From NCBI GenBank assembly GCA_964591445.1, contig CAZQAW010000002.1:67394-131393 (forward strand): a stretch of DNA of 64,000 nt, read 5' to 3'. Positions within the stretch are counted from its first letter, which is position 1, and each line of letters opens with the position of its first letter. The notes under the pieces were generated by a model, which was not told where the DNA came from, did not search any database, and saw nothing but the letters and a program-made list of their open reading frames with translations. Below, one piece after another: positions 1 to 47,475 of this stretch. A program made the position numbers and the translations under genes. The stretch is from an uncultured Candidatus Saccharibacteria bacterium. GTDB lineage: Bacteria > Patescibacteriota > Minisyncoccia > Phycocordibacterales > UBA9973.

Positions 1-879
1 GTGATGCGGCGAGCGGAACGGCGGAGCCGTGACAAGCTCCCTGGCGAGGTTTCCTGCAATAGAATAAATTCCCGTTGCTTCCAAAATTTCTGGAAGTGTC
101 AACCGCGGAAGTATGCCGGCAAATGCTTTTGCGAGCATCGTCTTTCCGGTTCCCGGCGGGCCCGACATGACGACATTGTGCCCGCCGGCTGCGGCAATTT
201 CGAGTCCGCGTTTTGCGGCTTCTTGTCCACGAATATCAGAAAAGTCTGTCGTGTGGTCTTCTTCGGCATACGTTATTTCTGTTTGCGGTTGCTTTTGTAT
301 TTTTCCTCCCGTGCCAAGGGGAGGTGTCAGCCCTTTGGCTGACGGAGGGGTGTGTGGTTTTTCGTCCAAATGTTCTATGACTTCCTTCAAATAGTTCACT
401 CCGAAAATCGTAATGCCATCAATCAGTGCTGCTTCAGCTGCATTTTCCATCGGCACGTAGACTTCTTGAAATCCTTTTGCTTTCGCTTCGCGCACAAGTG
501 GCAATGTTCCTTTGATCGGTTTTATTTCTCCGTTCAATGCAAGCTCGCCCAAGAAAAGTTTTTTCTCCGGTTCAAAATGTATATCGCCAAGCGAAAGCAG
601 ATATCCGAGCGCAATCGCCAAGTCAAAATATGGACCTTCTTTTTTCAAATCCGCCGGCGAAAGCGAAACAACTATTTTCTGATTCTGACTTTTAGGCGAA
701 GTGTAACCAGAATTTTTAAGCGCGCCGGAAACGCGGTCTTTCGATTCATCGACTGCTTTGTCTGGAAGCCCAACCACGGTAAAAGCATGAAGCGAATTCT
801 TGGTGATATCCGCTTCGATAGTGACGATTGCACCTTTCAGTGCATGAGTTTGTGCGCTGTAGACTCTTGAGAAGGACAT
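1..879 (-). CDS. comM: YifB/ComM family Mg-chelatase-like AAA+ ATPase (N-terminal part; C-terminus lies beyond the window start)
   Basis: Minus-strand translation from ATG at 879 reads MSFSRVYSAQTHALKGAIVTIEADITK...GLPDKAVDESKDRV...VVMSGPPGTGKTMLAKAFAGILP (Walker A). The listed + strand ORFs at 1..870 are antisense artefacts. Confidence 0.8.
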   Translation of the reverse strand, partial: MSFSRVYSAQTHALKGAIVTIEADITKNSLHAFTVVGLPDKAVDESKDRVSGALKNSGYTSPKSQNQKIVVSLSPADLKKEGPYFDLAIALGYLLSLGDIHFEPEKKLFLGELALNGEIKPIKGTLPLVREAKAKGFQEVYVPMENAAEAALIDGITIFGVNYLKEVIEHLDEKPHTPPSAKGLTPPLGTGGKIQKQPQTEITYAEEDHTTDFSDIRGQEAAKRGLEIAAAGGHNVVMSGPPGTGKTMLAKAFAGILPRLTLPEILEATGIYSIAGNLARELVTAPPFRSPHH

Positions 880-1259: not shown

Positions 1260-1306
1260 AGTTGTATCATAACACTGATAAAGGAAATATCAACTTCCGC
1301 GAGATG

Positions 1307-2245
1307 TTACCGGCGAATCCGGCTCGCATTGTATCGAGTCATAATTTCGGCAAACGTTTCTTGGGTTGTGGTGATGATGACGGTGTTTTGGTTGACGAAT
1401 CCATAGAGAAGTATTGTCTTGCCGTCTTTGTCGAGGAGTGTGCGCACGTCGATATTTCTGATCGTCGTATCTTGGAAGGGTTTTGCCAAGAGATAAGCGC
1501 GTTCACCGGAAACCGATATGTCAAACATTGTGAAAAAATCATCCACCATTTTTTTCTCCCATTCGAGCAAGCCCGCGTACATGTTGTCGTAGTCGCTTGT
1601 GTTAAGAAGCATGAACGGCGTATTGGCGCCCGAGCTTACTCCTTTGTGCACGCCGACCATAAATTCATTTTGCAAACTTCGAGATGCCCGGCCCGGAATG
1701 CTGGAAGCTACGGTTGTAAAAAATGCTTGCGCGCCAAGTTTTGTCGCGACGTCGCCACTCTTGGTGATGAAATACATATACAGCACACCGCCGTCTTTGA
1801 GAGTAACTTTTTCGACGTCGTTTTTTATCATCGTCTGCACTTGGTTTTTCAAAAGTCCGGTTACGTCGTAGCCTTTGTTTTCATCTGCATAGACGAGCGA
1901 CTGGATCTGCGGAGTGCTGTCGGTGACTTTCGGAGTCGCATCTTTTCTCATGTATAAAAAGTAATACCCGACTGCAATGATTCCAAGTGCGACAAGCACC
2001 GAACTTCCTGCAATGAAAGCTTTATTTTTTCGCGAAGCCGGAGAAAAGTTTTCGTACTCAGCGGTTTTCTTTTTTTGCTCAGCCATCGCAATCTTCACCA
2101 CGCTCGCTTCCCCGCTTTTGATGGCCTCGGCCATGTCAGAAGAAAAAGTGCGAAGCACAGTCGGCTGCGAATTTATTTTCTCTGTACTTTTGTCGACAAA
2201 ATTCTCGCGACCCGTATTGTTATTTCCATTATTTCCCGGTGGCAT
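1307..2245 (-). CDS. hypothetical single-pass membrane protein
   Basis: 312 aa; Asn/Gly-rich N-terminus, one hydrophobic helix (AFIAGSSVLVALGIIAVGYYFLY), large extracytoplasmic domain; no family recognised. Confidence 0.5.
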   Translation of the reverse strand: MPPGNNGNNNTGRENFVDKSTEKINSQPTVLRTFSSDMAEAIKSGEASVVKIAMAEQKKKTAEYENFSPASRKNKAFIAGSSVLVALGIIAVGYYFLYMRKDATPKVTDSTPQIQSLVYADENKGYDVTGLLKNQVQTMIKNDVEKVTLKDGGVLYMYFITKSGDVATKLGAQAFFTTVASSIPGRASRSLQNEFMVGVHKGVSSGANTPFMLLNTSDYDNMYAGLLEWEKKMVDDFFTMFDISVSGERAYLLAKPFQDTTIRNIDVRTLLDKDGKTILLYGFVNQNTVIITTTQETFAEIMTRYNASRIRR

Positions 2246-2278: not shown

Positions 2279-3085
2279 TTATTTCACATTTTTTACCACG
2301 CTTGCGCATTCTTCTTCTGAGATGACGGTGTGGAGGAGCGCTTGCAAGACTTTTGCCTTTGTTTCTTTCGGCAAGTTACTCCCTACACCCACCCCTCTTT
2401 TCTTGGCTTTTGCCGCGATAATGAAATCTATTTTCTCTGCAACATCTTGGTAAGCATTTGCCCCGTGTGCTACTAGGTGCAAATCTGGTCTGTCGACGGC
2501 TATCATTTCCATAACACCCTGCATCATTGTTTCTGCCAAGACTCCCATTTGTTCGTTATTCTTCCCTGTTCGCTCGGCAATTTTCTGGTAAGCCATCGAC
2601 ATGAGCATGTCTTTCTTGCGAGTTTCTTCGGTCAATTTTTCTGCCAGTATTTTATTTGTGTGGTTTTGGTAATCGTCTTCTCCTATTTTTTCTGTGTACA
2701 TTTTACGCAATCGTTTCCCTTCAAAAGTTCCTACTGTCCCCTTTTCTATCGCAACCTTCGCGCCAAAATGCCGGCTGGCGATTATTTCCCCGAGAGTTAC
2801 TTGTTCGTTCCCAATATAAAAAGATTTCTTGTATTTGTTATAAGAAATTACATTATCTTCACCCTCCAAAAGTTGGGCATCAGCAAGTTGCTCTGCACGA
2901 TGCTTTTCTTCTGTTGCTTGTAAAATTGCATCAGTTCCCACCAGCGCCCGCTCCATATCACCTAGAAAGTGAGGTTCTGTTTCCGGTGTTTCGTTTGTAC
3001 GACGCGGCGCTTCCATCAAGTTTGATTCGTTAAACATGTCTGTAGTATAGCAGGTCTGATAGCGAAAGAAATTATCATTTGACAA
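2279..3085 (-). CDS. hypothetical protein
   Basis: 268-aa ORF, coding-like composition, no recognisable motif. Confidence 0.45.
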   Translation of the reverse strand: MSNDNFFRYQTCYTTDMFNESNLMEAPRRTNETPETEPHFLGDMERALVGTDAILQATEEKHRAEQLADAQLLEGEDNVISYNKYKKSFYIGNEQVTLGEIIASRHFGAKVAIEKGTVGTFEGKRLRKMYTEKIGEDDYQNHTNKILAEKLTEETRKKDMLMSMAYQKIAERTGKNNEQMGVLAETMMQGVMEMIAVDRPDLHLVAHGANAYQDVAEKIDFIIAAKAKKRGVGVGSNLPKETKAKVLQALLHTVISEEECASVVKNVK

Positions 3086-5556: not shown

Positions 5557-6642
5557 TTACTTAAGAATTTTTAGCAAAGGATCAAACCGGAAAAGTTTAT
5601 TTCGACTTCGCTGTCCAACTTCAGAAATGTAGTTTTTTTCCTGTAAATTCTTTATGAGACTTGTTGCGGTAAGGTAGCTTGAACATTTTGTTGAATCCTG
5701 AACCATTTTAATAGTGAAAATCGGAGATTCGAAGAGCATATCAATAAATGGAATTATATATGGAGATTTATTAGTACTGTATTCTTTTCTCACCTTGTCA
5801 TATAAGGAATATATTTCTTCTATGATTTTTTGTGTTTCGTTGAGTTGTTCAGAAACAGAACGAAGGAAAAATTTTAACCACTCCTCGATATCATTACCCT
5901 CATCCACTGCATGCAATTTATCGATGTATTCATCTTTGTGGTCTTCAAAATAACCACTCAAATAGAGAATCGGGGCAGAAAGTCGTTGGTGTTTATGTAA
6001 GACTAATGGAATAAGTAGTCTACCAATACGCCCGTTTCCGTCATCAAAAGGGTGGATTGCTTCAAATTGATAATGCATCACGCCAGCTTTTATAAGTGCA
6101 TTTTCTTTGCCATTATTTATATAGTCAAACAGATTATCGACACCGCTTCTTACGTGTATTGGTTCTGGTGGAACATAAATTGCTTTCTCGATTGGATCTC
6201 CTGCACGTTCTGCAATCCATACTTGGCCTTCACGAAATTTCCCTAGTAAACCTTTATGGCGAACATCTTTCAATAGTATCCCGTGTAAGCTCTCAATGAG
6301 ATGACTACTTACACCTCTGCCTTTCTGAATTTCTTTTACTGCAAGCCCCATTGCTGTTCGGTAGTTTATGACTTCCTGAATGTCTGCGTGTTTAGTTTTT
6401 TCACCAGCATCAAATAGGAAAACATCCGCGACATCGCTTTGTGTTCCTTCGATCTTAGAACTCATAACGGCTTCTTTCGCTGTAAGAGGTGAAATAAGAA
6501 GTGAAGAGTTTTGTAATTTTTTTTGAGAACCTTCAAGTAAGCCAAGGGCGTACTCGGCGGTTGATAGTTCTTCTGCAAATTTGTTATAGTCTAACTTCAG
6601 CCCTTTAGGGTCCAAGTTTTTTACGATTGCTGGTTTTTTCAT
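5557..6642 (-). CDS. Fic/DOC family protein (AMPylator-type) with N-terminal inhibitory motif
   Basis: Canonical Fic motif HPFDDGNGRIGRLL; upstream SKIEGT matches the (S/T)xxxE(G/N) auto-inhibitory helix of class II Fic proteins. Confidence 0.85.
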   Translation of the reverse strand: MKKPAIVKNLDPKGLKLDYNKFAEELSTAEYALGLLEGSQKKLQNSSLLISPLTAKEAVMSSKIEGTQSDVADVFLFDAGEKTKHADIQEVINYRTAMGLAVKEIQKGRGVSSHLIESLHGILLKDVRHKGLLGKFREGQVWIAERAGDPIEKAIYVPPEPIHVRSGVDNLFDYINNGKENALIKAGVMHYQFEAIHPFDDGNGRIGRLLIPLVLHKHQRLSAPILYLSGYFEDHKDEYIDKLHAVDEGNDIEEWLKFFLRSVSEQLNETQKIIEEIYSLYDKVRKEYSTNKSPYIIPFIDMLFESPIFTIKMVQDSTKCSSYLTATSLIKNLQEKNYISEVGQRSRNKLFRFDPLLKILK

Positions 6643-11206: not shown

Positions 11207-11318
11207 CCCCTTCTCCTGAGGTAGGAGAAGGTGGCCTTTAGGCCGGATGAGGTATGTGTATAATCCAATACCTCACCCCGAACCTTCGGTCGACCCTCTC
11301 CTACTTTAGGAGAGGGAG
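11207..11318. repeat. family-A palindromic interspersed element, full copy (copy 1)
   Basis: 112 bp with hairpin-forming ends (CTTCTCCTGAGGTAGGAGAAG ... CCCTCTCCTACTTTAGGAGAGGG) and internal GAGGTAT..ATACCTC inverted segment; its exact reverse complement occurs at 26008..26119. Confidence 0.85.
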
Positions 11319-11344
11319 GAATTCAAAAATGCTATACTCTCTAC

Positions 11345-12370
11345 ATGTCACAAATCGACACGCTCAAGCGCCAATTTCTCGAATATTTGGAAATCGAAAA
11401 AGGTTCAAGCATCCGCACGGTAGAAAATTACCAGCGCTATCTCGAGCGTTTTTTTGAACAAGCGAAAATCGCGAATGCTTCTGACATTACCGACGACGCG
11501 GTGCGAGATTTTCGTTTGTGGCTCAACCGCCAATACGCAAAACATCAGAAAAGCAATCGCTTGCCGGGGAACACTATTTCCAAGCGCACGCAAAACTACT
11601 ATATGATCGCGCTCCGCATGTTCCTCAAATTTTTGATGAAACGCGAAATCAAATCTTTGCCAGCAGACCGCATCGAACTTGCAAAAACGACCGAGCGGCA
11701 CCTTGATCTCATTTCCAAAGACGAGCTCAACCGTTTGCTTGCAGCGCCCAAAGGCACCGACTTGAAATCGCTACGCGACAAAGCGATTTTGGAATTACTT
11801 TTTTCTACCGGGCTTCGCGTGTCGGAACTTTGTTCGCTCGGAAGTGATTTGGATGTGAACCGCGACGAATTCTCTATCCGCGGAAAAGGTGGCAAAGTGC
11901 GCGTAGTGTTTCTTTCCGACGATGCAAAAAATGCGGTGCGTGCGTATATGAAAGCCCGCAAAGATATGTCTGAAGCGTTGTTCGTGCAAGTTTCTGATAT
12001 GGAAGGCGGAAAAAAGAAAAAAGAAAAAGAGACACACCTCTCCGTCAGCAAAGCCGACACCTCTCCTTCAAAAGGGGAGGAAAACTTAAAGAAGAAAAAA
12101 AATAAAACTACTCTTGAGGCCGTTGCTCTCACTCGCCGTTCGGTCGAACGTATTGTGAAGCATTATGCAGTCGTTGCAGGCATTTCCAAAAAAGTAACTC
12201 CGCACGTCATCCGTCACAGCTTCGCGACAGATTTGCTGGGCAACGGCGCAGATATCCGCAGTGTGCAAGTCATGCTCGGCCACGCGAACATTGCAACCAC
12301 ACAAATATATACGCATGTCACAGACAGCCAGCTCCGAGAGATCCACAAAAAGTTTCATGGGAAAAAATAA
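11345..12370 (+). CDS. tyrosine site-specific recombinase, XerC/XerD-like
   Basis: N-terminal core-binding domain; C-terminal VTPHVIRHSFATDLLGNGADIRSVQVMLGHANIATTQIYTHV (R..H..R..Y catalytic set). Contains a Lys/Glu-rich insertion of about 45 aa at 11985..12125. Confidence 0.8.
   Translation: MSQIDTLKRQFLEYLEIEKGSSIRTVENYQRYLERFFEQAKIANASDITDDAVRDFRLWLNRQYAKHQKSNRLPGNTISKRTQNYYMIALRMFLKFLMKREIKSLPADRIELAKTTERHLDLISKDELNRLLAAPKGTDLKSLRDKAILELLFSTGLRVSELCSLGSDLDVNRDEFSIRGKGGKVRVVFLSDDAKNAVRAYMKARKDMSEALFVQVSDMEGGKKKKEKETHLSVSKADTSPSKGEENLKKKKNKTTLEAVALTRRSVERIVKHYAVVAGISKKVTPHVIRHSFATDLLGNGADIRSVQVMLGHANIATTQIYTHVTDSQLREIHKKFHGKK
12037..12110. repeat. family-B palindromic element copy embedded in frame in the recombinase gene
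   Basis: CACCTCTCCGTCAGCAAAGCCGACACCTCTCCTTCAAAAGGGGAGGAAAAC is about 80% identical to 37143..37200; it encodes the extra loop SVSKADTSPSKGEEN... absent from canonical XerC/D. Confidence 0.5.
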
Positions 12371-12418: not shown

Positions 12419-13198
12419 TTAAGCACCTGCTCCTTGCAAATCATCCGCAGGTTTCTCTTCGGTTTTGAAGTAAGGAAGTCCTTCAAAAAAATTGAGAATT
12501 AGAATCCCAGTAATAAATACAAAAGTCATTATTTGTATGGTAAACGGGAATTCTTTAACATAAAACCACCCACCGCCAATCAATAAGAAGTATGCTGTCA
12601 CAACTACACCCAGTCCTTTGTAAACACTACTTCTTAATTCAGTTTCTTGTGCAACAGCCAGAGCTTTTTCTTCTTCGTCTGTGGTTGTGCTAGCTTTTTC
12701 AAGAAATGCGTTACATTTTTTTATGGACCCTTGCAGTTGTATGCCAAACAGAAGCGCTATTATACAATTAAGCGCAAAAAACACTATTGTAGCAGTCAAA
12801 TGTTCGTGTACATCTATAATTGAATGTGAAAAGCATATGCAGACCAACCATAGACTAAGAACAATGATAAGAAGGGGTCGCATTTGTTTTTCAAAAAGAT
12901 AAGGTTGTTTACTCTTACCTGTTCTCTCACCTGCTACCCACAGAGCTAGTCCTAATAGTAGTTTAACGCCTACTCCCAGAATAAAAACAGGATGTGGTTT
13001 AAGCGATCTAAACGGTACCCATTCCGGGTAAAGTACTGCAAAAGGAACAACAATCGCTCCAATGATAATAGAGATAAGGTACAAGAAAATTCTTTTTGTG
13101 TTGTACTCACTGTGCGTAAAGTACAGGTAAACAGTGATTCCGAGGGCTACGAGCGAAATAGTTTCCGCTAGTATGTAAGTGCTTGTGATTTTTTCCAT
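12419..13198 (-). CDS. hypothetical polytopic membrane protein
   Basis: 259 aa with about 7 hydrophobic helices. Confidence 0.5.
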   Translation of the reverse strand: MEKITSTYILAETISLVALGITVYLYFTHSEYNTKRIFLYLISIIIGAIVVPFAVLYPEWVPFRSLKPHPVFILGVGVKLLLGLALWVAGERTGKSKQPYLFEKQMRPLLIIVLSLWLVCICFSHSIIDVHEHLTATIVFFALNCIIALLFGIQLQGSIKKCNAFLEKASTTTDEEEKALAVAQETELRSSVYKGLGVVVTAYFLLIGGGWFYVKEFPFTIQIMTFVFITGILILNFFEGLPYFKTEEKPADDLQGAGA

Positions 13199-18024: not shown

Positions 18025-18480
18025 ATGCCAAAGGTTTTTACTTCAAAAAGCCAAAAAATAGGGGAGTTGGGTGAAGAAATTGCCTGTAAATATCTTATTT
18101 CTAAAGGATTTAGAGTTTTGGAACGCAATTATACAAAGAAGTGGGGAGAAATAGACATAATTGCAGAACGTGATAGGAAAATCTACTTTATAGAGGTAAA
18201 AGCGGTTTCATGTGTAACATTGCCGGAGGTTTCTCAGTCAGACAATACCTCACCCCGGGCCTCTGGCCGACACTCTCCTACCTTAGGAGAGGGAAGAAGC
18301 CTTTTCCGTCCAGAAGAAAACATGCATCCAATGAAAGTCCGCAAGTTCTTAAGGACAATTCAAACGTACTTGATCCAAAGGAAAATAGAAGGGGAGTGGC
18401 AAGCAGATCTGTATTGCGTGTATATCCAGCTTGAAAGCCGCAAGGCAAGGGTGACGAAAATAGAAAACATTATTGGTTGA
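18025..18480 (+). CDS. yraN: YraN/UPF0102 family endonuclease-like protein carrying an in-frame repeat-derived insertion
   Basis: KYLISKGFRVLERNYTKKWGEIDIIAERDRKIYFIEVKA ... DLYCVYIQL matches the YraN core; about 30 extra residues (SQSDNTSPRASGRHSPTLGEGRSLF) are encoded by a family-A repeat fragment. Confidence 0.7.
   Translation: MPKVFTSKSQKIGELGEEIACKYLISKGFRVLERNYTKKWGEIDIIAERDRKIYFIEVKAVSCVTLPEVSQSDNTSPRASGRHSPTLGEGRSLFRPEENMHPMKVRKFLRTIQTYLIQRKIEGEWQADLYCVYIQLESRKARVTKIENIIG
18224..18302. repeat. family-A palindromic element, partial copy inside the yraN reading frame
   Basis: CAATACCTCACCCCG...CCGACACTCTCCTACCTTAGGAGAGGGAAG shares the ACCTCACCCCG and CTCTCCTACnTTAGGAGAGGG blocks with 11207..11318. 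Confidence 0.6.
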
Positions 18481-23351: not shown

Positions 23352-23876
23352 ATGAAAAATGTCGCAAAAAGTTTGACGTATGTTCCAAATGAAAGAGTAA
23401 TAAATAAAATATTTTTACTTCGTGGCAAGAAAGTAATGTTGGATCGTGATTTAGCAGAGCTTTACGGAGTGGAAACTCGAGTTCTCAATCAGGCAGTAAA
23501 AAGAAACTATGAGCGTTTTCCGAACGATTTTATGTTTCAACTTACGAGTACTGAAATAAAAAACTTGAAGTCACAAATTGTGATATCAAGTTGGGGTGGC
23601 ACAAGAAAACCATCTATGGTTTTTACCGAACAAGGTGTTGCGATGCTTTCAAGTGTTCTCAAAAGCAAACGTGCGATAGAAGTTAATATTCAAATTATTC
23701 GTACGTTTACAAAGTTGCGCGAACTCTTGGCGAGTCATACCAAGCTTCGCGCTAAGCTTGAAAATATGGAAAAGAAATATGATACGAAACTCAAACAAGT
23801 ATTTGATATTTTAAAGCAGCTGCTTATGCAAGAGACCAAAAAACCAAAAGGTCAAATTGGTTTCCGTGTTAAATAA
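23352..23876 (+). CDS. ORF6N (KilA-N-like) domain protein
   Basis: VMLDRDLAELYGVETRVLNQAVKRNYERFPNDFMFQLT matches the ORF6N/KilA-N DNA-binding family usually found on phage/mobile DNA. Confidence 0.65.
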   Translation: MKNVAKSLTYVPNERVINKIFLLRGKKVMLDRDLAELYGVETRVLNQAVKRNYERFPNDFMFQLTSTEIKNLKSQIVISSWGGTRKPSMVFTEQGVAMLSSVLKSKRAIEVNIQIIRTFTKLRELLASHTKLRAKLENMEKKYDTKLKQVFDILKQLLMQETKKPKGQIGFRVK

Positions 23877-26007: not shown

Positions 26008-26119
26008 ATCTCCCTCTCCTAAAGTAGGAGAGGGTCGACCGAAGGTTCGGGGTGAGGTATTGGATTATACACATACCTCATCCGGCCTAAAGGCCACCTT
26101 CTCCTACCTCAGGAGAAGG
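26008..26119. repeat. family-A palindromic interspersed element, full copy (copy 2, inverted relative to copy 1)
   Basis: Exact reverse complement of 11207..11318 over 112 bp (checked base by base). Confidence 0.85.
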
Positions 26120-26125
26120 GGTACC

Positions 26126-27202: not shown

Positions 27203-27250
27203 GCCTGTGACTTGCCAAAAACCCTCTCCTGGCTAGGAGAGGGTTAGGGT
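27203..27250 (-). terminator. terminator of ppa built from a family-A-like palindrome
   Basis: AACCCTCTCCTGGCTAGGAGAGGGTT hairpin with a T-run on the minus strand; resembles the CCCTCTCCTAC..TAGGAGAGGG end of family A. Confidence 0.5.
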
Positions 27251-27260
27251 GAGGTTGAGT

Positions 27261-27848
27261 TTATTCAGCTACTTTTGGAGCATAGTCTTTCTGATATCGC
27301 TCCATGCATTCTTTGACTATGTGCATCGCTTCTTCTGGATCAAGGAATTCTCCAACTGCGCCAGTACCTGGTTTTTTGAGTGCTTTGTAATTTTCCCAAT
27401 AGTATTTTGTTTCTTTTACAAAGTATTCGCCAAGGTCTGTGTAGCTTTTAATATGGTCAGAGCGTTTGTCGCTTGCGAGGACCGCAATTATTTTGTCGTC
27501 AACTTCGCCGCCGTCAACGAACTTCATCGCGCCAATGATGCGGATTTCTGCAACACATCCTGGCACCAAGGGCTCGGTAATGTTTACAATTTCAACATCA
27601 AGCGGGTCGCCATCCAAATCCCAAGTCTGTGGAATTGCTCCGTATGTAAATGGATACGCAAGAGAAGAGTATCCAACACGGTCGAGCTTGAGCTGTCCGC
27701 TTTCGGTAATAAGTTCGTATTTATTGATCGAGCCTGCAGAAACTTCGACAATAGTGTTAGCGATTTTTCCCGCCTCGTCGACAACTGCCGGTAAAACATG
27801 CAAAAGGTTGAGCATGTATTTTGAAGGTTTGTGATTGATGTTTGCCAT
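27261..27848 (-). CDS. ppa: inorganic pyrophosphatase (family I)
   Basis: 195 aa from MANINHK; EVSAGSINKYE...DGDPLDV...DDKIIAVL motifs of soluble PPase. Confidence 0.9.
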   Translation of the reverse strand: MANINHKPSKYMLNLLHVLPAVVDEAGKIANTIVEVSAGSINKYELITESGQLKLDRVGYSSLAYPFTYGAIPQTWDLDGDPLDVEIVNITEPLVPGCVAEIRIIGAMKFVDGGEVDDKIIAVLASDKRSDHIKSYTDLGEYFVKETKYYWENYKALKKPGTGAVGEFLDPEEAMHIVKECMERYQKDYAPKVAE

Positions 27849-27956
27849 AGTGCTTTTATAGTAGCAGAAATGGTGCAAAATTGCATCTTTGCCTATGTTT
27901 CACAAAGAAGCGCGACACGTTAGTGTCGCGCTTCTTCTTTTTCGTAATGTGATTTC

Positions 27957-35322: not shown

Positions 35323-35471
35323 TAGAAAAAGTGGAAAATATGATTTGAAATGCCTTGCGCAAGGTCGTCTACAGATGTCTGTCTTACCCGACAGACCCGT
35401 CGGGCCGAGCAGAGCAAAAATTCAGCAGAATTTTATGTCGTGCATTTCAAATCATATTTTCCACTTTTTCT
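35323..35471. repeat. 30-bp perfect inverted repeat flanking an 89-nt structured core in the HIT/recJ divergent intergenic region
   Basis: AGAAAAAGTGGAAAATATGATTTGAAATGC (35323..35352) and its exact reverse complement (35442..35471). The core contains the palindrome CCTTGCGCAAGG and the stem GTCTGTC-TTACCC-GACAGAC; the right arm ends 4 nt before the recJ ATG. Confidence 0.65.
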
Positions 35472-35474
35472 TAT

Positions 35475-37151
35475 ATGAAACCTATCCCAGACGAACTATC
35501 TACATATACGCCGCTACTCGGCCGACTGCTTACAAACCGCGACATTGTCACTTTCAAAGACGCAGAACATTTTTTGAATCCTTCTTTTACGCGCGACTTG
35601 GCAGACCCGTTCGGTATTCACGATATGGAAAAGGCGACGGTGCGGATTTACGAAGCAATGGAAGCGAAAGAAAAAATTGTGGTTTTTGCGGATTATGATT
35701 GCGACGGCATTCCAGGTGCGGTGATTATGCATGACTTTTTTACAAAGCTTGGTTATGAGAACTTTGAAATATACATTCCCGACAGACATCACGAAGGATA
35801 TGGCTTGAGTATTCCCGCGATAGAAAAGTTTCGTGACAACGAAGTAAAATTAATTATTACCATCGATCTTGGAACTTCAAACGTCGAAGAAATCGCGCAA
35901 GCGGAAGCGTTTGGAATTGATGTTATAGTCACTGATCACCATTTACCGAAAACAGATGTGCCGCATGCGTACGCAATTGTGAATCCAAAACTAAGTCCTG
36001 ATTATAACGATATCATGCTCTGCGGTTCCGGAGTTGTATTTCGTCTTGTGCAAGCATTCCTTACAAAGTATCGTGAATACTACAAAGTCCAAGACGGATG
36101 GGAAAAATGGTTGCTCGACATGGCCGGCCTCGCAACGCTTTCAGACATGGTGCCGCTGGTCAAAGAAAACCGCGTGCTCGCATACTACGGCATGATGGTG
36201 TTGAAAAAAAGTCCACGACCTGGTTTGCTTCGCTTGCTTTATAAAATGAAAGTCGATCCGCGTACAATGACCGAAGACGATATTGCCTTTATGCTCACTC
36301 CGCGCATCAATGCTGCTTCGCGCATGGACAATCCGCTTCGCGCTTTCGAACTTCTTTCTACTCGCGATAGTGTGAAAGCGGGTGCACTTGCTGACCATTT
36401 GACAAACATAAATGACGAACGAAAAACACTGGTTGCAACGATCATGAAAGAAGCGCATCACACTTTGCGCGAGAGAGAAGAGAAGCATGTGATCGTCATT
36501 GGCAACCCAAAATGGCGCGTTGGTGTGCTTGGGCTTGTCGCTTCGAAGATTATGGAAGAATATAAAAAGCCGACATTTGTGTGGGGGCTTGAAGGTGCGA
36601 GCGTGATCAAAGGTTCGTGTCGAAGCGACGGCAGTGTGAACTTGGTGTCGCTTATGGCGCACATTCCAAAAGATTCACTTCTCGAATTCGGCGGGCATGA
36701 ACTTGCCGGAGGATTTTCTGTGAGTCACGAAAGCGTGCATTTTCTCGAAGAGCATCTTAGTGCAAGTTACACCGAAATAAAAAAAGAAGGAGCGATTGTT
36801 TCTGCAAATCCTATCGACATGCATTTGACGCTCGACGATGTGACGATGAAGAATTACAAAGACATTGCAAAGCTCGCACCGTTTGGTGTTGGGAATCCGA
36901 AGCCGACATTTCTGTTTGAAAATGTGATGATCCAAAACGTCAAAGAATTTGGGAAAGAGCAAAACCACCTTGAACTGTGTTTTGAAAATTCAAACAGCAG
37001 GCCGATCAAAGCGATAGCATTCTTTAAAACGCGCGCGTCCTACGGCCGCGCGCTTCAAAAAGGCGTTGCCATAAATCTTGTAGCAACCTTTGAACTTTCC
37101 AACTTTGCCGGCAGGGAAGAGCTGCGGCTACGCATAGTTGATATTTTATAA
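35475..37151 (+). CDS. recJ: single-stranded-DNA-specific exonuclease RecJ
   Basis: DHH motifs (DYDCDGIPGAVIMHDF; VTDHH) and DHHA1 domain (GGHELAGGFSV). Start at ATG 35475. Confidence 0.85.
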   Translation: MKPIPDELSTYTPLLGRLLTNRDIVTFKDAEHFLNPSFTRDLADPFGIHDMEKATVRIYEAMEAKEKIVVFADYDCDGIPGAVIMHDFFTKLGYENFEIYIPDRHHEGYGLSIPAIEKFRDNEVKLIITIDLGTSNVEEIAQAEAFGIDVIVTDHHLPKTDVPHAYAIVNPKLSPDYNDIMLCGSGVVFRLVQAFLTKYREYYKVQDGWEKWLLDMAGLATLSDMVPLVKENRVLAYYGMMVLKKSPRPGLLRLLYKMKVDPRTMTEDDIAFMLTPRINAASRMDNPLRAFELLSTRDSVKAGALADHLTNINDERKTLVATIMKEAHHTLREREEKHVIVIGNPKWRVGVLGLVASKIMEEYKKPTFVWGLEGASVIKGSCRSDGSVNLVSLMAHIPKDSLLEFGGHELAGGFSVSHESVHFLEEHLSASYTEIKKEGAIVSANPIDMHLTLDDVTMKNYKDIAKLAPFGVGNPKPTFLFENVMIQNVKEFGKEQNHLELCFENSNSRPIKAIAFFKTRASYGRALQKGVAINLVATFELSNFAGREELRLRIVDIL

Positions 37152-37200
37152 CCCCACCCCTCCGTCTCGGAATACCGAGCCACCTCCCCTTTAAAAGGGG
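37143..37200. repeat. family-B palindromic element copy downstream of recJ
   Basis: ACCCCACCCCTCCGTCTCGGAATACCGAGCCACCTCCCCTTTAAAAGGGGAGGAAAACACG; related to 12037..12110; hairpins CTCGG/CCGAG and CCTCCCC/GGGGAGG. Confidence 0.5.
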
Positions 37201-37300
37201 AGGAAAACACGAGTTCTTGACTTTTTATACAATATGGTGTAAAGTGTGGTCAAACGAATTTTAAAATAACAAATAATTAAACTAAAACAAATTTACAACA

Positions 37301-38447: not shown

Positions 38448-41400
38448 ATGAAAAAAAATACTTTCCTTGTCGGTTTGAGTGTTGTGGTGGTGTTCGTGCT
38501 CATCTTCAACATTTTCAAAACTGACAGTTTGCGTGGGATCTTGAAGCGTGTCGGCAATCGCGGCCAGCAGGCAGCGGTCAATAGCGTCCCGACGACGATC
38601 CCAGACTATTATTGGCGTTTCGAAGGCGGAATGACTCCAACCAACGGTTCTGGTAACTACCCGGTTACCGGTGGCTCCGTTGCTACTGGCTGTAGCGCAG
38701 CTGGCGGATGCTTAAACACGACTGTTTCAAGCGTTAACGGCACATTCCCAAGCATCGGCAGTGTAAGCAAGCTCTCGTACGAGTTCTTGTTTAAAGCTGG
38801 CCCACGCTTTGAAACGACTATTTTCTTCGATGATCGACCTTCTCAGACAGCATTCTCTGCCATGCTTGAATGGCCTGCCTCCGGTCTTACTATTCCGAAG
38901 CTCTGGTTCCAGGTCAACGGAGACCGACTTTCTGTCGATCTTACTGGTATTGGCCAGAAACGATGGGGGTATTTTGCCGATGGCAATTTCCACCACATGG
39001 TCTTTACTTATGATGGCGCGTCAGGAAAGCGCACTATCTACGTTGATGGAGTAAAATTTGCTGAAAAAACTGGCACTACAGGCAACGTAAACCTAAGTTC
39101 AAACAACCTTTACTCTGGAGGTCTTACGAGCTATGAACGTTTGAGTGGCTCTATAGATGAAGTCGCTATCTATAAAAATGTAGCTATCGACCCTCTTCTC
39201 GTCGCCCAGCACTACCAAGATGCGGTAGTAAACGGCGTTGCATACAATACAACAAACACCACAGTAGCAAACGTGCCAGCTGCACCTGCTTCAACTGCTG
39301 GTATCGATTCTTCTGAATATCCAGTTGGCTACCCTACTCCAGGATCTATGGCTTCTGCTACCACACAGTTGAAGTCATATCCGCTTCCTCGATACAAGCC
39401 AGGAAACACTCTTATGAAAAACGTTGACTGGATAGACGGTATGTATTTTGGAGGACGCTTCCAACCGGGCGTGTCTGATCCTCAAGCCGTGACGAACAGT
39501 ACAACTATCAAAGACGAACTTGCAAAGAACTGGAACTATGCGGTGATGATCAACTGGTCAAGCGGTAATGAATTCGTTCCTGCATGGAAGACGCTTATTA
39601 ACAACAATCCAAGTTACCAGTTTGATTTCACGACGCTTCGAGCGCAAGTCAACGGTGGTACAAAAATTACTAACCAAACTCTTCCAAATGATCGTTATTT
39701 CCAAAACGCATCAGGATCAGCTTTGGTCCCCGCTGGTTGCGGAACAGCGTCAGGTACAAAATATTGGCGTGCTGTTCCAAATTTTGAAGCAGACTATATG
39801 AGCGATGGTACTTCTGCGGCAGGGTGGGTAGCTGGCGCATTGTCAGGACTCAATGCCGACCGAAAGGTTCGTATCTTGAACGAAAACGGAGAAGTACATT
39901 TGTACTACACGAATGGTTGCGGATCTCAAGACCCTCTTATCGAATCAAGCCGTGCAGCTTATAACAGCGCAAACGGTACAAGCTTGACCACAAAGCAATA
40001 TATCGGCGAACAATATCGTCGAAGTATGCAGAACGAATATTTTACTCCAATCAAGAATGCAAGCCCGTCACGACTTACTGACACAAAGTTCACTTTGTAC
40101 CAGGTGTCTGGACGTGGAGAATATGCTTACGATTGGTCCACTGCTCGAAAAATCAACACCCCAATTAATGGCCAATACTACTCAACACTCGATTTCTACC
40201 AAGGTTTCTATGGAGCGACTGGACCAAACAACTGGGCAAACGGTGTTGGGGCAGGTAATGGACTCGGAGTATTTCTTGAAGCTCGCAAGAACGAAATTGC
40301 GCTTGGAGATAAACTCTTCTCTCCATTCGTAGCAGCAGGTTGGATGCATTCGAATATACATCCTTATACAAATACAACGTATTCTCAGACAGACGTCCGA
40401 CCTGGACAATGGCTTGGAATGCTCAAGCTTTTGGGTGCTATCGGTGCCGAATTTTATTACACAGGTTACTTTAACGAAGGTGGTAACTACCAGAACTGTA
40501 CGACATCTGGTGGTACATGCCCTGCTCTACCACAGACATATGCATGGCAAGCAGTCATGCCTTCATACGCACAAGGCGCAATGAGCCGAGCTGAAGATTT
40601 GCTTCGAGGCACACTCATTACAAACACTGCGGGTAACTTGCCGGCTGTGTACACTAACCCAACATCCAACGATGGCTTCTTGCTTGCAACAGGAGACAAG
40701 ACAGTTCCCGCATTCGCTCGACAAAGCGGTAGTAAATATTTGATCACCGCCGCGGTCATGCGCAACCACAATATGCAAGAGTCTGCCCAAGAACAGACAA
40801 AGAACGTGAATGTCACTGTCGGTGGAGACAACCTCCGTATCCAAGCTCGTCAACAAGGAAGCATGTACGTGTATGACAAATCAAACACGGCGGCGCCGAT
40901 CTTTTACCAGATCGACGGATGGCATGAACGTGCTCACCCAAGCTACTGGACTGGCGACTTTAGTATCGAAGCTGAAATGCCTGACTCTGGTACAGCACAG
41001 CTCGTCACATACGGCCCAGGTGTTGCTTCAAAAGATTTTACTCCTGGCAACTACACGACAGCCGTCAAGAATGCTTCAGGAACTCTTTCATACAATTTCC
41101 AACCTCGAAACGCTGCATCAAGTGGTACAGAAACGCGTTACCTCTGGTTCCGCGCAAACAACAACTCTACGACAGCTGCTTCAACGGGAAGCTTTGCTGT
41201 AGATTCTGGTGCTGCACAAACAGTAAGCTTGCCAGCAAATAGCGGCAACGTTTGGTGCAACAAGAACTCTGCTGGCCAAGTCATGGCGTTCTCTGTGAGT
41301 CAAAATGCAGACCATCAGTTGAAGTACACTGCATCAAATGCAAACCTTTATGTTGATCAGTTCGTCCTTACGACAAATCCAAACCTCGGACTTGGTACAT

Positions 41401-43631
41401 GTACCGGCGGCGCGGGAACTTCCGACACGATTCTACCCAGTATATCCATCACCTCGCCAACTACTAGCGCGACCTACTCTACTTCCACTCCTTCTATTAC
41501 TCTCTCTGGTAGCGCTTCTGACAATGTGGCTGTTACGTCGGTCGTCGCGGTAAACGCAGCAGCAGGCGCATCCGCAATCAGTATCAGCGGTACGACATCT
41601 TGGACCGGAAGTGTGTCACTTGTGTCCGGCTTGAACAGTCTTGTTGTGACAGCATACGATGCAGCTGGAAACCAAAAGCAAGCAACGCTTGATGTTACGT
41701 ACACACCAGCAGACACTGTTCTTCCAAACGTTTCTATTGTGGCACCGGTTGCTTCTGGTGGAACATATCTTGCAACTTCTAACTCCCTCACCACTCTTGC
41801 CGGCACCTCTTCCGACAACGTCGGAGTCACCCAAGTAACATGGGTCAACTCACTCGGCGGCTCTGGTACAGCAACAGGAACAACAAGCTGGTCTGTGCCT
41901 TCGATTGCGCTTTCCAACGGCTCTAACGTGATTACGGTCACAGCCAAAGATGCGGCAAACAATACGAAGACTGCAAGTATCACAGTAGTTCGAGATACGA
42001 CAGCCCCAACAGTTTCTGTCACAGTTCCTACAGCTGGTGCATCATTTACTGGCACAAGCCCTATCACTTTGACTGCAAATGCGACTGACAACGTAGCTAT
42101 CGACCATGTCGACTTCTACTATGGCTCAAACCAATTCATCGGCGGCGCGACAACTGTCACCGGTGGCAACTACACTCGCACATGGACACCAAGCACAAGC
42201 GGGTCTATCGGCCTTTACGCTATCGCATATGACACATCTGGAAATCCAAAGACTTCTGCAACAGTTACAATCTCTGTCAGTCTTTCAACTCCGGACACTA
42301 TCGCTCCGACAGTACAAATGTCTGCTCCGGCAGCTGGTGCAACAGTGTCTGGCACAGCGGTCACTCTTGGTGCAGTTGCAAGTGACAACACGGGTGTATC
42401 TTCTGTAGCATTCTACTTGGATGGAGTGGCGATCTCTGGCGCAATCGATACGACAGGCAACAATCCAAACACGAATGGCACCGGCATCACCGGCCAACTC
42501 TATGAAGCGGTATGGAATACATCTTCAGTTTCAAATGGAACACATACACTTTCTGCTCGAGCAACAGATGCGGCTGGTAATATCAAAAATTCATCGACAG
42601 TTTCGATCACGGTTTCAAATGTAGTCGGCCAACCAGATCTTATAGTTACAGATCTCAGCTGGACTCCGGCATCACCAGTTCTTGGTTCAGTTATTACATT
42701 TAGTGCAGTGGTGAAAAATGTAGGAAATGCAGCAACACCTGCAGGAAAAGTGACAAGCGTTACTTTCTACAACAACGAAGGCACTGTCATCGGTTGTGGT
42801 GACTCTTATACTCAGTCCATCGCAGCTGGCGCAAGCATTACGGTGACAGCTGGACAGACTTCATCTGTCACAAGCAACTGGTGTAACACTACTCTTGGCG
42901 GACAAATTCCTCCAACGTGGATTGCTACAGGTAGTGCATTTGAAGCACGAGCTGAAGTTGACGACATCAACCGTATTACTGAAAGCAATGAGACAAACAA
43001 CATGTTGACTACTGTATATAATCCTCCGGCAGATACGACTGCTCCAACTGTTGCTATCACTTCTCCGACAACGTCTGCAACATACAGTTCAACAAGTGCT
43101 ACACTTGCGAACCTTGCCGGCACCTCTTCCGACAACGTCGGAGTCACCCAAGTAACATGGGTCAACTCACTCGGCGGCTCTGGTACAGCAACAGGAACAA
43201 CAAGCTGGTCTGTGCCTTCGATTGCGCTGCTTAGTGGTACAAATGTGATTACAATCACTGCTTATGATGCATCAGGAAATACTGCAACCAAGCAGCTTGC
43301 AGTGTCATACGCAGTTGCATCAAGCGATACAGTTGCACCAACGGTCACTATTACGAGCCCGGCTAACAATGCCAATGTCTCAAACACTTCTAATACGACA
43401 TTTGTTGCCACAGCAACGGACAATGTCGGCGTAACTGAAGTGAAATTTTTTCTCGGGGGCACTACAACGGCAGCGAAATGCACTCTTTCTTCTCCTACTA
43501 CTGCACCTAGTACTTACACATGTTCGTTCAAAGTACCGTCCGTCTTCTTCGGATGGGGAACTTCGACCATAACAGTACAGGCAAAAGACGCAGCAGGAAA
43601 TACGAAAGTGACAAGCATCAAAGTTCGCTAA
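38448..43631 (+). CDS. giant (1727 aa) membrane-anchored adhesin-like protein: LamG/ConA-like domain, about 600-aa unassigned central domain, about 7 Ig-like repeats and a CARDB-like domain
   Basis: N-terminal TM; LamG-like block FHHMVFTYDGASGKRTIYVDGVKF...GSIDEVAIYK; repeated DTxAPTVxITSP...SDNVGVTxV Ig-like modules; CARDB-like PDLIVTDLSWTPASPVLGSVITFSAVVKNVGNAATP. Confidence 0.75.
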   Translation: MKKNTFLVGLSVVVVFVLIFNIFKTDSLRGILKRVGNRGQQAAVNSVPTTIPDYYWRFEGGMTPTNGSGNYPVTGGSVATGCSAAGGCLNTTVSSVNGTFPSIGSVSKLSYEFLFKAGPRFETTIFFDDRPSQTAFSAMLEWPASGLTIPKLWFQVNGDRLSVDLTGIGQKRWGYFADGNFHHMVFTYDGASGKRTIYVDGVKFAEKTGTTGNVNLSSNNLYSGGLTSYERLSGSIDEVAIYKNVAIDPLLVAQHYQDAVVNGVAYNTTNTTVANVPAAPASTAGIDSSEYPVGYPTPGSMASATTQLKSYPLPRYKPGNTLMKNVDWIDGMYFGGRFQPGVSDPQAVTNSTTIKDELAKNWNYAVMINWSSGNEFVPAWKTLINNNPSYQFDFTTLRAQVNGGTKITNQTLPNDRYFQNASGSALVPAGCGTASGTKYWRAVPNFEADYMSDGTSAAGWVAGALSGLNADRKVRILNENGEVHLYYTNGCGSQDPLIESSRAAYNSANGTSLTTKQYIGEQYRRSMQNEYFTPIKNASPSRLTDTKFTLYQVSGRGEYAYDWSTARKINTPINGQYYSTLDFYQGFYGATGPNNWANGVGAGNGLGVFLEARKNEIALGDKLFSPFVAAGWMHSNIHPYTNTTYSQTDVRPGQWLGMLKLLGAIGAEFYYTGYFNEGGNYQNCTTSGGTCPALPQTYAWQAVMPSYAQGAMSRAEDLLRGTLITNTAGNLPAVYTNPTSNDGFLLATGDKTVPAFARQSGSKYLITAAVMRNHNMQESAQEQTKNVNVTVGGDNLRIQARQQGSMYVYDKSNTAAPIFYQIDGWHERAHPSYWTGDFSIEAEMPDSGTAQLVTYGPGVASKDFTPGNYTTAVKNASGTLSYNFQPRNAASSGTETRYLWFRANNNSTTAASTGSFAVDSGAAQTVSLPANSGNVWCNKNSAGQVMAFSVSQNADHQLKYTASNANLYVDQFVLTTNPNLGLGTCTGGAGTSDTILPSISITSPTTSATYSTSTPSITLSGSASDNVAVTSVVAVNAAAGASAISISGTTSWTGSVSLVSGLNSLVVTAYDAAGNQKQATLDVTYTPADTVLPNVSIVAPVASGGTYLATSNSLTTLAGTSSDNVGVTQVTWVNSLGGSGTATGTTSWSVPSIALSNGSNVITVTAKDAANNTKTASITVVRDTTAPTVSVTVPTAGASFTGTSPITLTANATDNVAIDHVDFYYGSNQFIGGATTVTGGNYTRTWTPSTSGSIGLYAIAYDTSGNPKTSATVTISVSLSTPDTIAPTVQMSAPAAGATVSGTAVTLGAVASDNTGVSSVAFYLDGVAISGAIDTTGNNPNTNGTGITGQLYEAVWNTSSVSNGTHTLSARATDAAGNIKNSSTVSITVSNVVGQPDLIVTDLSWTPASPVLGSVITFSAVVKNVGNAATPAGKVTSVTFYNNEGTVIGCGDSYTQSIAAGASITVTAGQTSSVTSNWCNTTLGGQIPPTWIATGSAFEARAEVDDINRITESNETNNMLTTVYNPPADTTAPTVAITSPTTSATYSSTSATLANLAGTSSDNVGVTQVTWVNSLGGSGTATGTTSWSVPSIALLSGTNVITITAYDASGNTATKQLAVSYAVASSDTVAPTVTITSPANNANVSNTSNTTFVATATDNVGVTEVKFFLGGTTTAAKCTLSSPTTAPSTYTCSFKVPSVFFGWGTSTITVQAKDAAGNTKVTSIKVR
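41796..41911 (+). repeat. intragenic 116-nt exact duplication, copy 1
   Basis: CTTGCCGGCACCTCTTCCGACAACGTCGGAGTCACCCAAG...TCGATTGCGCT identical to 43113..43228 (encodes LAGTSSDNVGVTQVTWVNSLGGSGTATGTTSWSVPSIAL). Confidence 0.85.
43113..43228 (+). repeat. intragenic 116-nt exact duplication, copy 2
   Basis: Identical to 41796..41911 at nucleotide level. Confidence 0.85.
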
Positions 43632-47367: not shown

Positions 47368-47475
47368 CCAGAACATACTTTTTAAAAGCACGACATAAAA
47401 TCCTGGTGGATTTTTGCTCTGCTCGGCTCGACAGCCTGCGCAAGGCTTTTCAAAAGCATGTTCTGGCTATTTCTT
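47360..47475. repeat. 24-bp inverted repeat (1 mismatch) with 68-nt spacer bridging the stops of two convergent genes
   Basis: AGAAATAGCCAGAACATACTTTTT (47360..47383) versus AAAAGCATGTTCTGGCTATTTCTT (47452..47475). Confidence 0.45.

Follow-up and report, generated by a model that had tools for sequence, protein, structure and literature searches.

A probable footprint of a REP/RPE-like double-hairpin repeat in a predicted disordered loop of a XerC/D-type recombinase from a Patescibacteria-type genome

An in-frame double-hairpin repeat in the xer gene

The XerC/D-type tyrosine recombinase gene xer of contig CAZQAW010000002.1 very probably contains a copy of a small non-autonomous double-hairpin repeat of the repetitive extragenic palindrome (REP) or Rickettsia palindromic element (RPE) kind, which appears to have been inserted into a pre-existing, predicted disordered loop of the recombinase and now remains there as a footprint. 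This copy, designated B1 (51 nt, 12035..12085, + strand), was recognized from alignments, predicted folds and sister assemblies, and lies in frame in xer (11345..12370, + strand; 341 aa). Two further copies of the same family (B2 and B3) and several members of a related family A are present in the analysed window, which is a 64,000-nt stretch of this 133-kb contig and the basis of all element counts given for the window. The window has a GC content of 43%, and the closest homologues of its Xer, ComM and RecJ proteins carry Patescibacteria source names of the Nomurabacteria/Paceibacteria type.

The family-B copies share the layout CACCCCTCC-GTC-(hairpin 1)-(C/A)CA-CCTCCCC-(loop)-GGGGAGG-AAAA. 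Hairpin 1 is 5-8 bp long, with free stem sequence and conserved pairing (CTCGG/CCGAG in B2, GTCAGCC/GGCTGAC in B3, and GTCGGC/GCCGAC in the B1 copies of sister strains), and hairpin 2 is formed by a polypyrimidine CCTCCCC and a polypurine GGGGAGG arm. The sequence CCGTC stands immediately 5′ of hairpin 1 in B1, B2, B3 and the copy of the sister assembly L001, and the GTC is able to pair with the 3′ foot of those copies where this reads GAC. The 3′ tail is CCA in B2 and ACA in B1 and B3, and conforms to (C/A)CA in 46 aligned copies. B1 itself consists of the box CACCTCTCC, hairpin 1 (12044..12058), hairpin 2 (12060..12080) and an A-run. It encodes 17 hydrophilic residues rich in Pro, Ser, Gly and Lys (HLSVSKADTSPSKGEEN, Xer residues 231-247) with no stop codon in the frame used, and the peptide ...ETHLSVSKADTSPSK... 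belongs to the Xer stretch carrying the insert. Both of its hairpins are imperfect, with one A.C mismatch in the first stem and one G.T pair in the second.

A first-pass annotation, made from the window sequence alone, had reported a sequence about 80% identical to this part of xer in the 3′ region of recJ, at 37143..37200. The site is real, although the coordinates given lie some 10 nt too far left of the true core, B2 (54 nt, 37155..37208, + strand, in recJ orientation), which alignment and hairpin scans identified as an intact extragenic copy. B1 and B2 are identical at 44 of 54 positions (81%) and differ by one 3-nt indel, located in the first hairpin. The two hairpins described for the recJ region are also present, as CTCGG-AATA-CCGAG and CCTCCCC-TTTAAAA-GGGGAGG (37183..37203), each having a counterpart with one imperfect pair in B1. 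B2 is a member of the same family rather than a close sister of B1, as the annotation had it, since the three B copies share 71-81% identity (77% for B1 and B3, 71% for B2 and B3) and differ in their hairpin-1 stems. When B1 was used as a query against both strands of the rest of the window, the top local scores were 26 (B2) and 23 (B3). The corresponding null distribution from 300 shuffles had a mean of 11.8, a standard deviation of 1.06 and a maximum of 16.5, which places B2 and B3 at z ~10-13.

The host loop of Xer

The xer product is encoded by an intact open reading frame (ORF) and has the two-domain architecture of its family, with Pfam matches to Phage_integrase (7e-41) and to SAM-like N-terminal domains. 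Its best relatives in the PDB are XerD (1a0p, 1.7e-36) and XerA. The catalytic residues R158, K181, H287, R290, H313 and Y322 are all present and are invariant in an alignment of 29 homologues. As the first-pass annotation had proposed, the repeat lies between the conserved catalytic blocks, in a segment that is short in canonical Xer proteins: E. coli XerD (1a0p) has 20 residues where the window protein has 55, and the phmmer alignment of the two proteins splits at the loop (residues 203/259). This hypervariable Lys/Glu-rich surface loop (residues 217-261, 11993..12127, + strand), delimited by homologue lengths, AlphaFold2 and phmmer, comprises the 45 residues SDMEGGKKKKEKETHLSVSKADTSPSKGEENLKKKKNKTTLEAVA and is bounded by EALFVQV and LTRRSVER.

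The annotation had further regarded the whole Lys/Glu-rich segment of about 45 residues as an insertion, and this part of its claim does not hold. Among 101 Paceibacteria-type Xer homologues (62-76% identity, all lacking the palindrome), the loop varies from 8 to 45 residues with a median of 18 and is mostly K/E-rich. The Xer of the syntenic outgroup L195 (71% identical to the window protein) reads ...KNKKEKETE--NKSAQKTKKKGKEETL... at this place, that is, ...RKEKNKKEKETE-NKSAQKTKKKGKEETLDLPP..., and thus has the KKEKE...KKK flanks in common with the window protein but not the core. Because a mostly K/E-rich loop of 8-45 residues is found in 101 palindrome-free homologues and the flanks are alike in L195, sequence comparison identifies these flanks as an ancestral low-complexity linker that predates the element. 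The footprint of the mobile element in Xer would therefore comprise only the 51-nt core with its 17 codons. Conservation of the insert in homologues without the palindrome, which the annotation would have taken as evidence against a mobile element, was accordingly found for the flanks and not for the core.

An AlphaFold2 model built with a 29-sequence alignment had a mean predicted local distance difference test (pLDDT) score of 69. Residues 218-257 were predicted with pLDDT <50 and no secondary structure, with the neighbouring elements well predicted. In the model, the loop connects the β-strand that follows the catalytic-Lys hairpin to the helix leading to H287-x-x-R290. The active-site modelling proposed in the first-pass annotation thus returned a disordered loop beside an intact R-K-H-R-H-Y set, and nothing in this prediction suggests that the insertion disturbs the active site.

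Age and decay of the insertion

Comparison of the recombinase with its orthologues, also proposed in the annotation, revealed the same in-frame insertion in six sister-strain assemblies (L001 and L199-L203; 95-97% nucleotide identity to the window), which originate from six different samples or runs, the JGI samples 3300045379, 3300045398 and 3300045395 and the runs SRR23702481-83. The sister copies are identical to each other and have perfect stems, GTCGGC-AAA-GCCGAC and CCTCCCC-TTCAAAA-GGGGAGG. The core is absent from 118 of the 120 best homologues listed, being present only in the 97%-identical cluster, and is also absent from the Xer of L195. Judged by these sequences, the insertion took place after the split of the L195-like lineage and before the window strain separated from its sisters.

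The window copy differs from the sister copies at five positions (12039, 12047, 12064, 12085 and 12087). At 12039 (C>T) the box has lost a consensus base, at 12047 (G>A) a pair of hairpin 1 is broken, and at 12064 (C>T) a G-C pair of hairpin 2 has become G.T, so all three window-specific changes within boxes and stems depart from the family consensus. The remaining two positions fall on the core's 3′ edge or just past it. Folding predictions gave an energy of -19.0 kcal/mol for the window copy versus -27.0 kcal/mol for the sister copy. In the 20 codons around B1 there are three replacements and two silent changes, with the rest of the protein being 97% identical. Window B1 has thus been decaying since its split from the sisters, three of five substitutions having removed consensus bases or stem pairs. 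Because these substitutions erode the consensus and the stems without sign of constraint, we infer that B1 is a neutral footprint rather than a functional module of Xer.

Mobility of the related family A

Family A is represented by two dimers of 112 nt that are 100% identical to each other. One is located in the spacer between rpsO and xer (11207..11318, + strand) and the other upstream of tig (26010..26121, - strand). The first half reads CCTCATCC-GGCC-TAAA-GGCC-A-CCTTCTCCT-ACCTC-AGGAGAAGG and the second CCTCACCC-CGAACC-TTCGGTCG-A-CCCTCTCCT-ACTTT-AGGAGAGGG. Each half shows the family-B architecture on the appropriate strand, and family A is therefore a head-to-head dimer.

The dimer next to xer is absent at the DNA level from L001, L199 and L201, where the rpsO-xer spacer is 25 nt long versus 142 nt in the window. 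By gene coordinates, the spacer is equally short in L200, L202 and L203, and it is short in the outgroup L195 as well. The copy upstream of tig is shared with L204 at the same place (~93% nucleotide identity; loop CTAGT versus GAGGT). Because the rpsO-xer dimer is absent from sisters and outgroup and identical to the older tig copy, the sequences show a recent duplication of the window's own tig-proximal copy that is specific to the window lineage. The element at 26010..26121 is the older copy and the probable donor. The repeat superfamily has thus been mobile in this lineage, as demonstrated for family A.

A shorter relative without hairpin 1, CCTCACCC-TAA-CCCTCTCCT-AGCC-AGGAGAGGG, was detected by the hairpin scan at 27222..27254 (- strand), some 7 nt past the stop codon of ppa (27261..27878, - strand) and in the same orientation as this gene. 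It is 100% conserved in L204 and presumably resembles the GGAGAGGGTTAGGGTGAGG-type repeats of many bacteria. In total, the window contains six loci with perfect polypyrimidine/polypurine hairpins, compared with 0.5 expected from shuffles. The count rises to eight hairpin sites when B1, with its G.T pair, and the A dimers' left arms are included. These sites belong to seven element loci, of which family B accounts for three and family A for two dimers and a single unit, the short unit being the seventh.

The extragenic copy B2 starts 3 nt past the stop codon (TAA, 37149..37151) of recJ (35355..37151, + strand; DHH, DHHA1 and RecJ_OB domains in Pfam). The true start of recJ is probably at about 35445, because its 95% identical homologue has 568 aa. 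B2 shows no differences in L197 and one in L198, which falls within the three nucleotides immediately 5′ to the core, with recJ being ~95% identical in these strains. The spacer downstream of B2 (37209..37300), which has a promoter-like TTGACT...TATACAAT sequence, is 100% identical in three strains, and the coding DNA differs by ~5%. The probable recJ start is also surrounded by a repeat of another family (35324..35471), in which perfect 30-nt inverted arms (35324-35353 and 35442-35471) enclose 88 nt. A related 117-nt palindromic structure is found at 47359..47475, and the internal 53 nt are 89% complementary between the two loci. This second family looks MITE-like (MITE, miniature inverted-repeat transposable element) and is also present in the sister strain L197.

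In-frame copies in other genes

The first-pass annotation had suggested an RPE-like phenomenon in this genome, and this suggestion is supported by additional copies that are in frame within genes, bringing the host genes in the window to xer, comM and yraN. Copy B3 (300..352, - strand; alignment and hairpin scan) is located in comM/yifB (1..879, - strand), a gene for a Mg-chelatase-like AAA+ ATPase recognized by YifB-family homologues and PF13541/PF01078, of which the N-terminal 293 codons lie in the window before it runs off the end. B3 is translated in a reading frame different from that of B1, giving HLDE-KPHTPPSAKGLTPPLGTGGK-IQKQPQT in the variable segment that links the ChlI domain to the AAA+ domain. 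This linker is 34-73 aa long in 90 homologues, none of which has the B3 sequence, and the L195 orthologue also lacks it. The third gene is yraN/UPF0102 (18025..18480), which contains a single right-hand family-A unit in frame (18226..18298, + strand; 78% identical to 11249..11321). This unit encodes EVSQSDNTSPRASGRHSPTLGEGRS and divides the UPF0102 domain, the Pfam match of the protein ending at position 42 of the 80-position profile. The yraN orthologues in L002 and L195 do not have the A unit.

A similar situation was found outside this genome in gatA of L146, an unrelated metagenome contig with 47% GC, where the element is read in the same entry frame as in xer (..MRIN-PSVSTADTSPSQGRK-NSII..). 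GatA of P. aeruginosa has 6 fewer residues in the linker at this insertion site. In another metagenome contig, L129, a B-type element occurs in tsaD (…TSH-PSVSVSTPSHLPLAGEE-…), and the frame appears to be broken soon after, which suggests that this insertion is disruptive or compound.

Palindromes of other kinds occupy the same loops in related genomes. The Xer loop of P0005 has a single CCTCCCCC/GGGGGAGG hairpin and that of P0017 an unrelated GC-rich palindrome. L195 yraN carries, at the same spot as the window unit, a different perfect palindrome with 12-bp arms, CCACCCGTTTCA|TATGAAACGGGTGG. More broadly, the Xer, ComM and YraN loops of the Paceibacteria P0005/L002, P0017/L205, P0174, P0014 and P0221 contain differing GC-rich palindrome-encoded peptides, including HPHPTSPLAKGEE, ATHSVAGGG or ATRSVAGGG, SPKSDLG and LRQGYAGHG. 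The capture of palindromes by linkers seems to be general in this Paceibacteria group.

Distribution and covariation of the hairpins

A scan of species-representative genomes with the pattern CCCTCCGTC-N10-20-ACCTCCCC-N5-10-GGGAGGAA yielded at least 120 loci. Among the matches listed, most were in Sphingomonas, Reyranella, Phenylobacterium, Caulobacter and Brevundimonas, and a few were labelled Actinomycetota, Chloroflexota, Bacteroidota or Bacillota. The replicons of Sphingomonas parapaucimobilis contain 11-22 copies each, nearly all of them unannotated and intergenic. A second scan, of metagenomes with an A/T-context pattern, found 72 loci on contigs of 34-72% GC.

Hairpin 1 occurs with 75 different stems in a set of 160 distinct copies; these stems form 5-8 Watson-Crick pairs (2-4 in shuffled sequences) and mostly enclose loops of 3-4 nt. 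In a 46-sequence MAFFT alignment, which is misaligned in the 3′ arm of hairpin 2, hairpin 1 was paired in 85.5% of cells versus 58.9% after shuffling, and its covariation score was 0.546 versus 0.118 for shuffled columns and ≤0.10 for slid partners. On this comparative evidence, hairpin 1 is a conserved structure. The stems contain two G.T and four A.C oppositions, small numbers that show no G.T excess. Because G.T is no commoner than A.C, a palindrome acting at the DNA level fits better than a single-strand RNA structure.

Origin of the element and alternative explanations

In the proposed scenario, one copy of the repeat would have landed in the already long, disordered, Lys/Glu-rich loop of Xer and, being stop-free in frame, would have been tolerated. 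The copies may propagate as DNA, in the form of single-strand hairpins, by means of a trans-acting enzyme, in analogy to REPs and the HUH transposases of the REP-associated tyrosine transposase (RAYT) type. Within genes, only stop-free copies in frame and in tolerant linkers would survive. The copies close to stop codons, B2 behind recJ and the ppa-proximal short unit, might, more tentatively, have been co-opted as RNA hairpins of the mRNA 3′ end.

Several observations weigh against this reading. ORFs within 2.5 kb of ~190 loci were clustered, and no transposase or other recurrent gene was found beside the elements, only syntenic housekeeping genes recurring. Likewise, Pfam searches of 39 window ORFs revealed neither a transposase domain nor a RAYT-like gene. 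The three B copies have diverged by 19-29%, have unlike hairpin-1 stems and show no sign of recent family-B activity. Neither a target-site duplication nor a clean empty site can be defined for B1, its nearest element-free relative (L195) being 71% identical in Xer. Because the search patterns prescribed the boxes, the conservation of these boxes among phyla is in part a product of the search. Finally, some labels of metagenome-assembled genomes are doubtful, as illustrated by a locus labelled Prosthecochloris that has 67% GC.

A much broader proposal, which we regard as unlikely, holds that the double-hairpin core is one widespread, undescribed mobile or structural module (CCCTCC-GTC, a covarying hairpin, CACCTCCCC, a loop and GGGGAGGAA) common to Patescibacteria, Alphaproteobacteria, Actinomycetota and others (34-72% GC), with boxes that mimic anti-Shine-Dalgarno (anti-SD; CACCTCC) and Shine-Dalgarno (SD; GGAGG) sequences. 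Such a module would have spread in minimal genomes of the candidate phyla radiation (CPR) without an element-encoded or RAYT-type transposase and would be a systematic source of new linker peptides in housekeeping proteins.

Among the competing explanations of the element, the one that survives best, although distinctly unlikely, is that it is mainly a functional RNA module, such as a 3′-end stabilizer, a processing hairpin or an SD-hiding switch in which CCTCC/CACCTCC pairs with GGAGG. The xer copy would then affect the xer mRNA. B2 and the ppa-proximal unit indeed lie 3-7 nt past stop codons in sense orientation and are 98-100% conserved versus 93-95% for coding DNA. The conserved boxes look like anti-SD and SD sequences, the anti-SD sequence being linked to the 16S 3′ end. 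These extragenic copies, unlike the decaying B1, hint at constraint in small counts. In addition, the C-rich strand coincides with the mRNA strand in every one of the six singletons examined, of which the window supplied five and gatA of L146 one. However, the orientation relative to genes is mixed in other low-GC contigs, and no orientation rule is claimed here. The RNA module is further disfavoured by the lack of any Rfam match over B1, B2 and B3 at the gathering score or at E≤10, by the absence of a U-run and of a G.U excess in the stems, by the decay of the intragenic copy, and by the duplication of the A dimer to a new locus, which is transposon-like behaviour.

Ectopic gene conversion or template switching from a different genomic copy, via A-rich microhomology, is a quite improbable origin of B1 as opposed to enzyme-mediated transposition. 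Such an origin would agree with the failure to find a transposase or a target-site duplication, and both the 3′ end of the element and the linker are A-rich, GAAAAC being found at the junction in L195 as well as in the window. On the other hand, one architecture with intact hairpins recurs at many unrelated sites and genomes, which argues for hairpin-dependent copying, and the spacer that received the new A dimer has no evident homology to the flanks of the donor.

Far less credible is the explanation that the entire Xer insert is ancestral low-complexity linker and that its likeness to the sequence downstream of recJ is a by-product of composition. It stands for the flanks, since most homologues have a long K/E-rich loop and relatives share the KKEKE and KKKK flanks, but it is refuted for the core, a GC-rich sequence in an A-rich linker with z ~10-13 for B2 and B3 relative to shuffles, with perfect hairpins in six sister assemblies, and missing from nearly all listed homologues (118 of 120). 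An assembly or binning artefact, in which a chimeric read path put the repeat in xer, has only the general risk of repeats in metagenome assemblies in its favour and a negligible probability, because six other assemblies from different samples carry the in-frame insertion, and the exact window protein is also known from an NCBI contig.

An inserted copy of a non-autonomous double-hairpin repeat thus remains the preferred explanation of B1. In-frame palindromic repeats have so far been an oddity of Rickettsia and a handful of proteobacteria, and the same process would here operate in a CPR bacterium with a minimal genome. The strains provide a dated series of events, from the insertion with perfect hairpins in the sisters to the decaying window copy and the fresh duplication of a related dimer. 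The long, odd loops of CPR housekeeping proteins may be viewed as permissive landing pads, in which different lineages have captured different palindromes. The apparent sharing of the core across phyla without a recognizable transposase bears on how RAYT-less tagged REPs are copied, a question for which the strain polymorphisms can be used.

Other features of the window

Just downstream of xer, a membrane-protein gene (12419..13198, - strand; 259 aa) has no blastn match to the genes at the corresponding place in L001 (2083..2805) and L199 (11080..11802), which encode 240 aa, and the flanks are 95-98% identical between strains. It is a hypervariable or replaced gene. Relative to window position 2376/2377, in the gene at 2279..3085 (- strand), L199 has 208 extra nt (1301..1509), which is not a multiple of three. 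A 170-nt direct repeat (41796..41965 and 43113..43282, 88% identical) in a 1727-aa ORF (38448..43631) probably reflects a domain repeated within a giant surface protein. Three accessory-type genes are found amid the housekeeping genes, namely a Fic/DOC gene (5557..6642, - strand), a gene with an ORF6N domain (23352..23876, + strand) and one with a Peptidase_S74 domain (52801..54357, + strand; endosialidase chaperone, tail-fibre-like).

Comparison with known systems

A MITE, which would have terminal inverted repeats matching an insertion sequence (IS) as well as target-site duplications, was ruled out for this repeat, as the ends (CACCCCTCC... and ...GGAGGAAAA) are not mutual inverted repeats, and an intrinsic terminator was ruled out, as hairpin 2 is followed by AAAAC or AAAAA. 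No target-site duplication was visible at the junctions of B1, B2, B3 and the new A dimer. Our literature searches found no report of REP-like elements in Patescibacteria.

Fungal mitochondria contain GC-cluster or double-hairpin elements, whose layout is, by description, similar to that of the present repeat, although they are organellar and unrelated in sequence. In Coxiella, MITEs have been found inserted in frame in genes (PMC5896051). By description, both resemble the present element as small structured repeats that survive in ORFs when in frame and add short peptides to proteins.

GTAG REPs and REPINs are short hairpins with an unpaired GTAG tag that form dimers and propagate in a hairpin-dependent manner by RAYT (Y1 HUH) transposases, with REPs flanking the RAYT gene. 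The short tagged hairpins and dimers are shared with our element, making these REPs its likely functional analogue. In contrast to them, the tag is CGTC here, and no RAYT-like gene was found near the ~190 loci or in the 39 window ORFs.

RPE-1-type elements of Rickettsia are roughly 100-150 bp long and AT-rich. By description, the present element differs from RPEs in its length of 51-54 nt, its high GC content, its two short hairpins, its Patescibacteria host and a core shared with many non-rickettsial genomes. It resembles them in occurring in a reduced genome, at surface or linker sites and in several genes of one genome, with the protein not destroyed. RPEs are cited as dispersed palindromes that are both intergenic and in frame in housekeeping genes (Ogata et al. 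2000/2002, as cited in PMC3733652). In-frame genic insertion at sites compatible with the protein fold, which characterizes RPEs, was observed for xer, comM, yraN and gatA of L146, the Xer loop being predicted to be disordered.

The closest comparison is with the CGTC-tagged REPs, which have an unpaired CGTC (or TGTC/CCTC) head, a stem of 8-9 bp, a loop of 4-5 nt and a CCA tail (Di Nocera, De Gregorio & Rocco 2013, PMC3733652). The stems of families CGTC-1 to -4 have A-T pairs at the first and second positions. These REPs are mostly alphaproteobacterial with outliers in other phyla, include the Rickettsia elements RPE-4 and RPE-6, often form head-to-head dimers and have no dedicated transposase. 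Their intragenic copies, found notably in replication and repair genes, encode peptides of the VIPGLDPGI and WMPGTRPGMT type (PMC3733652). The elements described here likewise have a CGTC head, a (C/A)CA tail, head-to-head dimers (family A), intragenic copies and no dedicated transposase, and most of their matches are in Alphaproteobacteria, with outliers labelled as other phyla. Unlike the published families, they have GC-rich stems of 5-8 bp with loops mostly of 3-4 nt, encode unrelated peptides (PSVSxADTSP), and possess an obligatory C-rich 5′ box and a second, polypyrimidine/polypurine hairpin that are undescribed in PMC3733652. Full membership in CGTC-1 to -4 was ruled out by stem length, stem composition and the encoded peptides, and the element is treated here as a variant within the tagged-REP kind, outside these four families.

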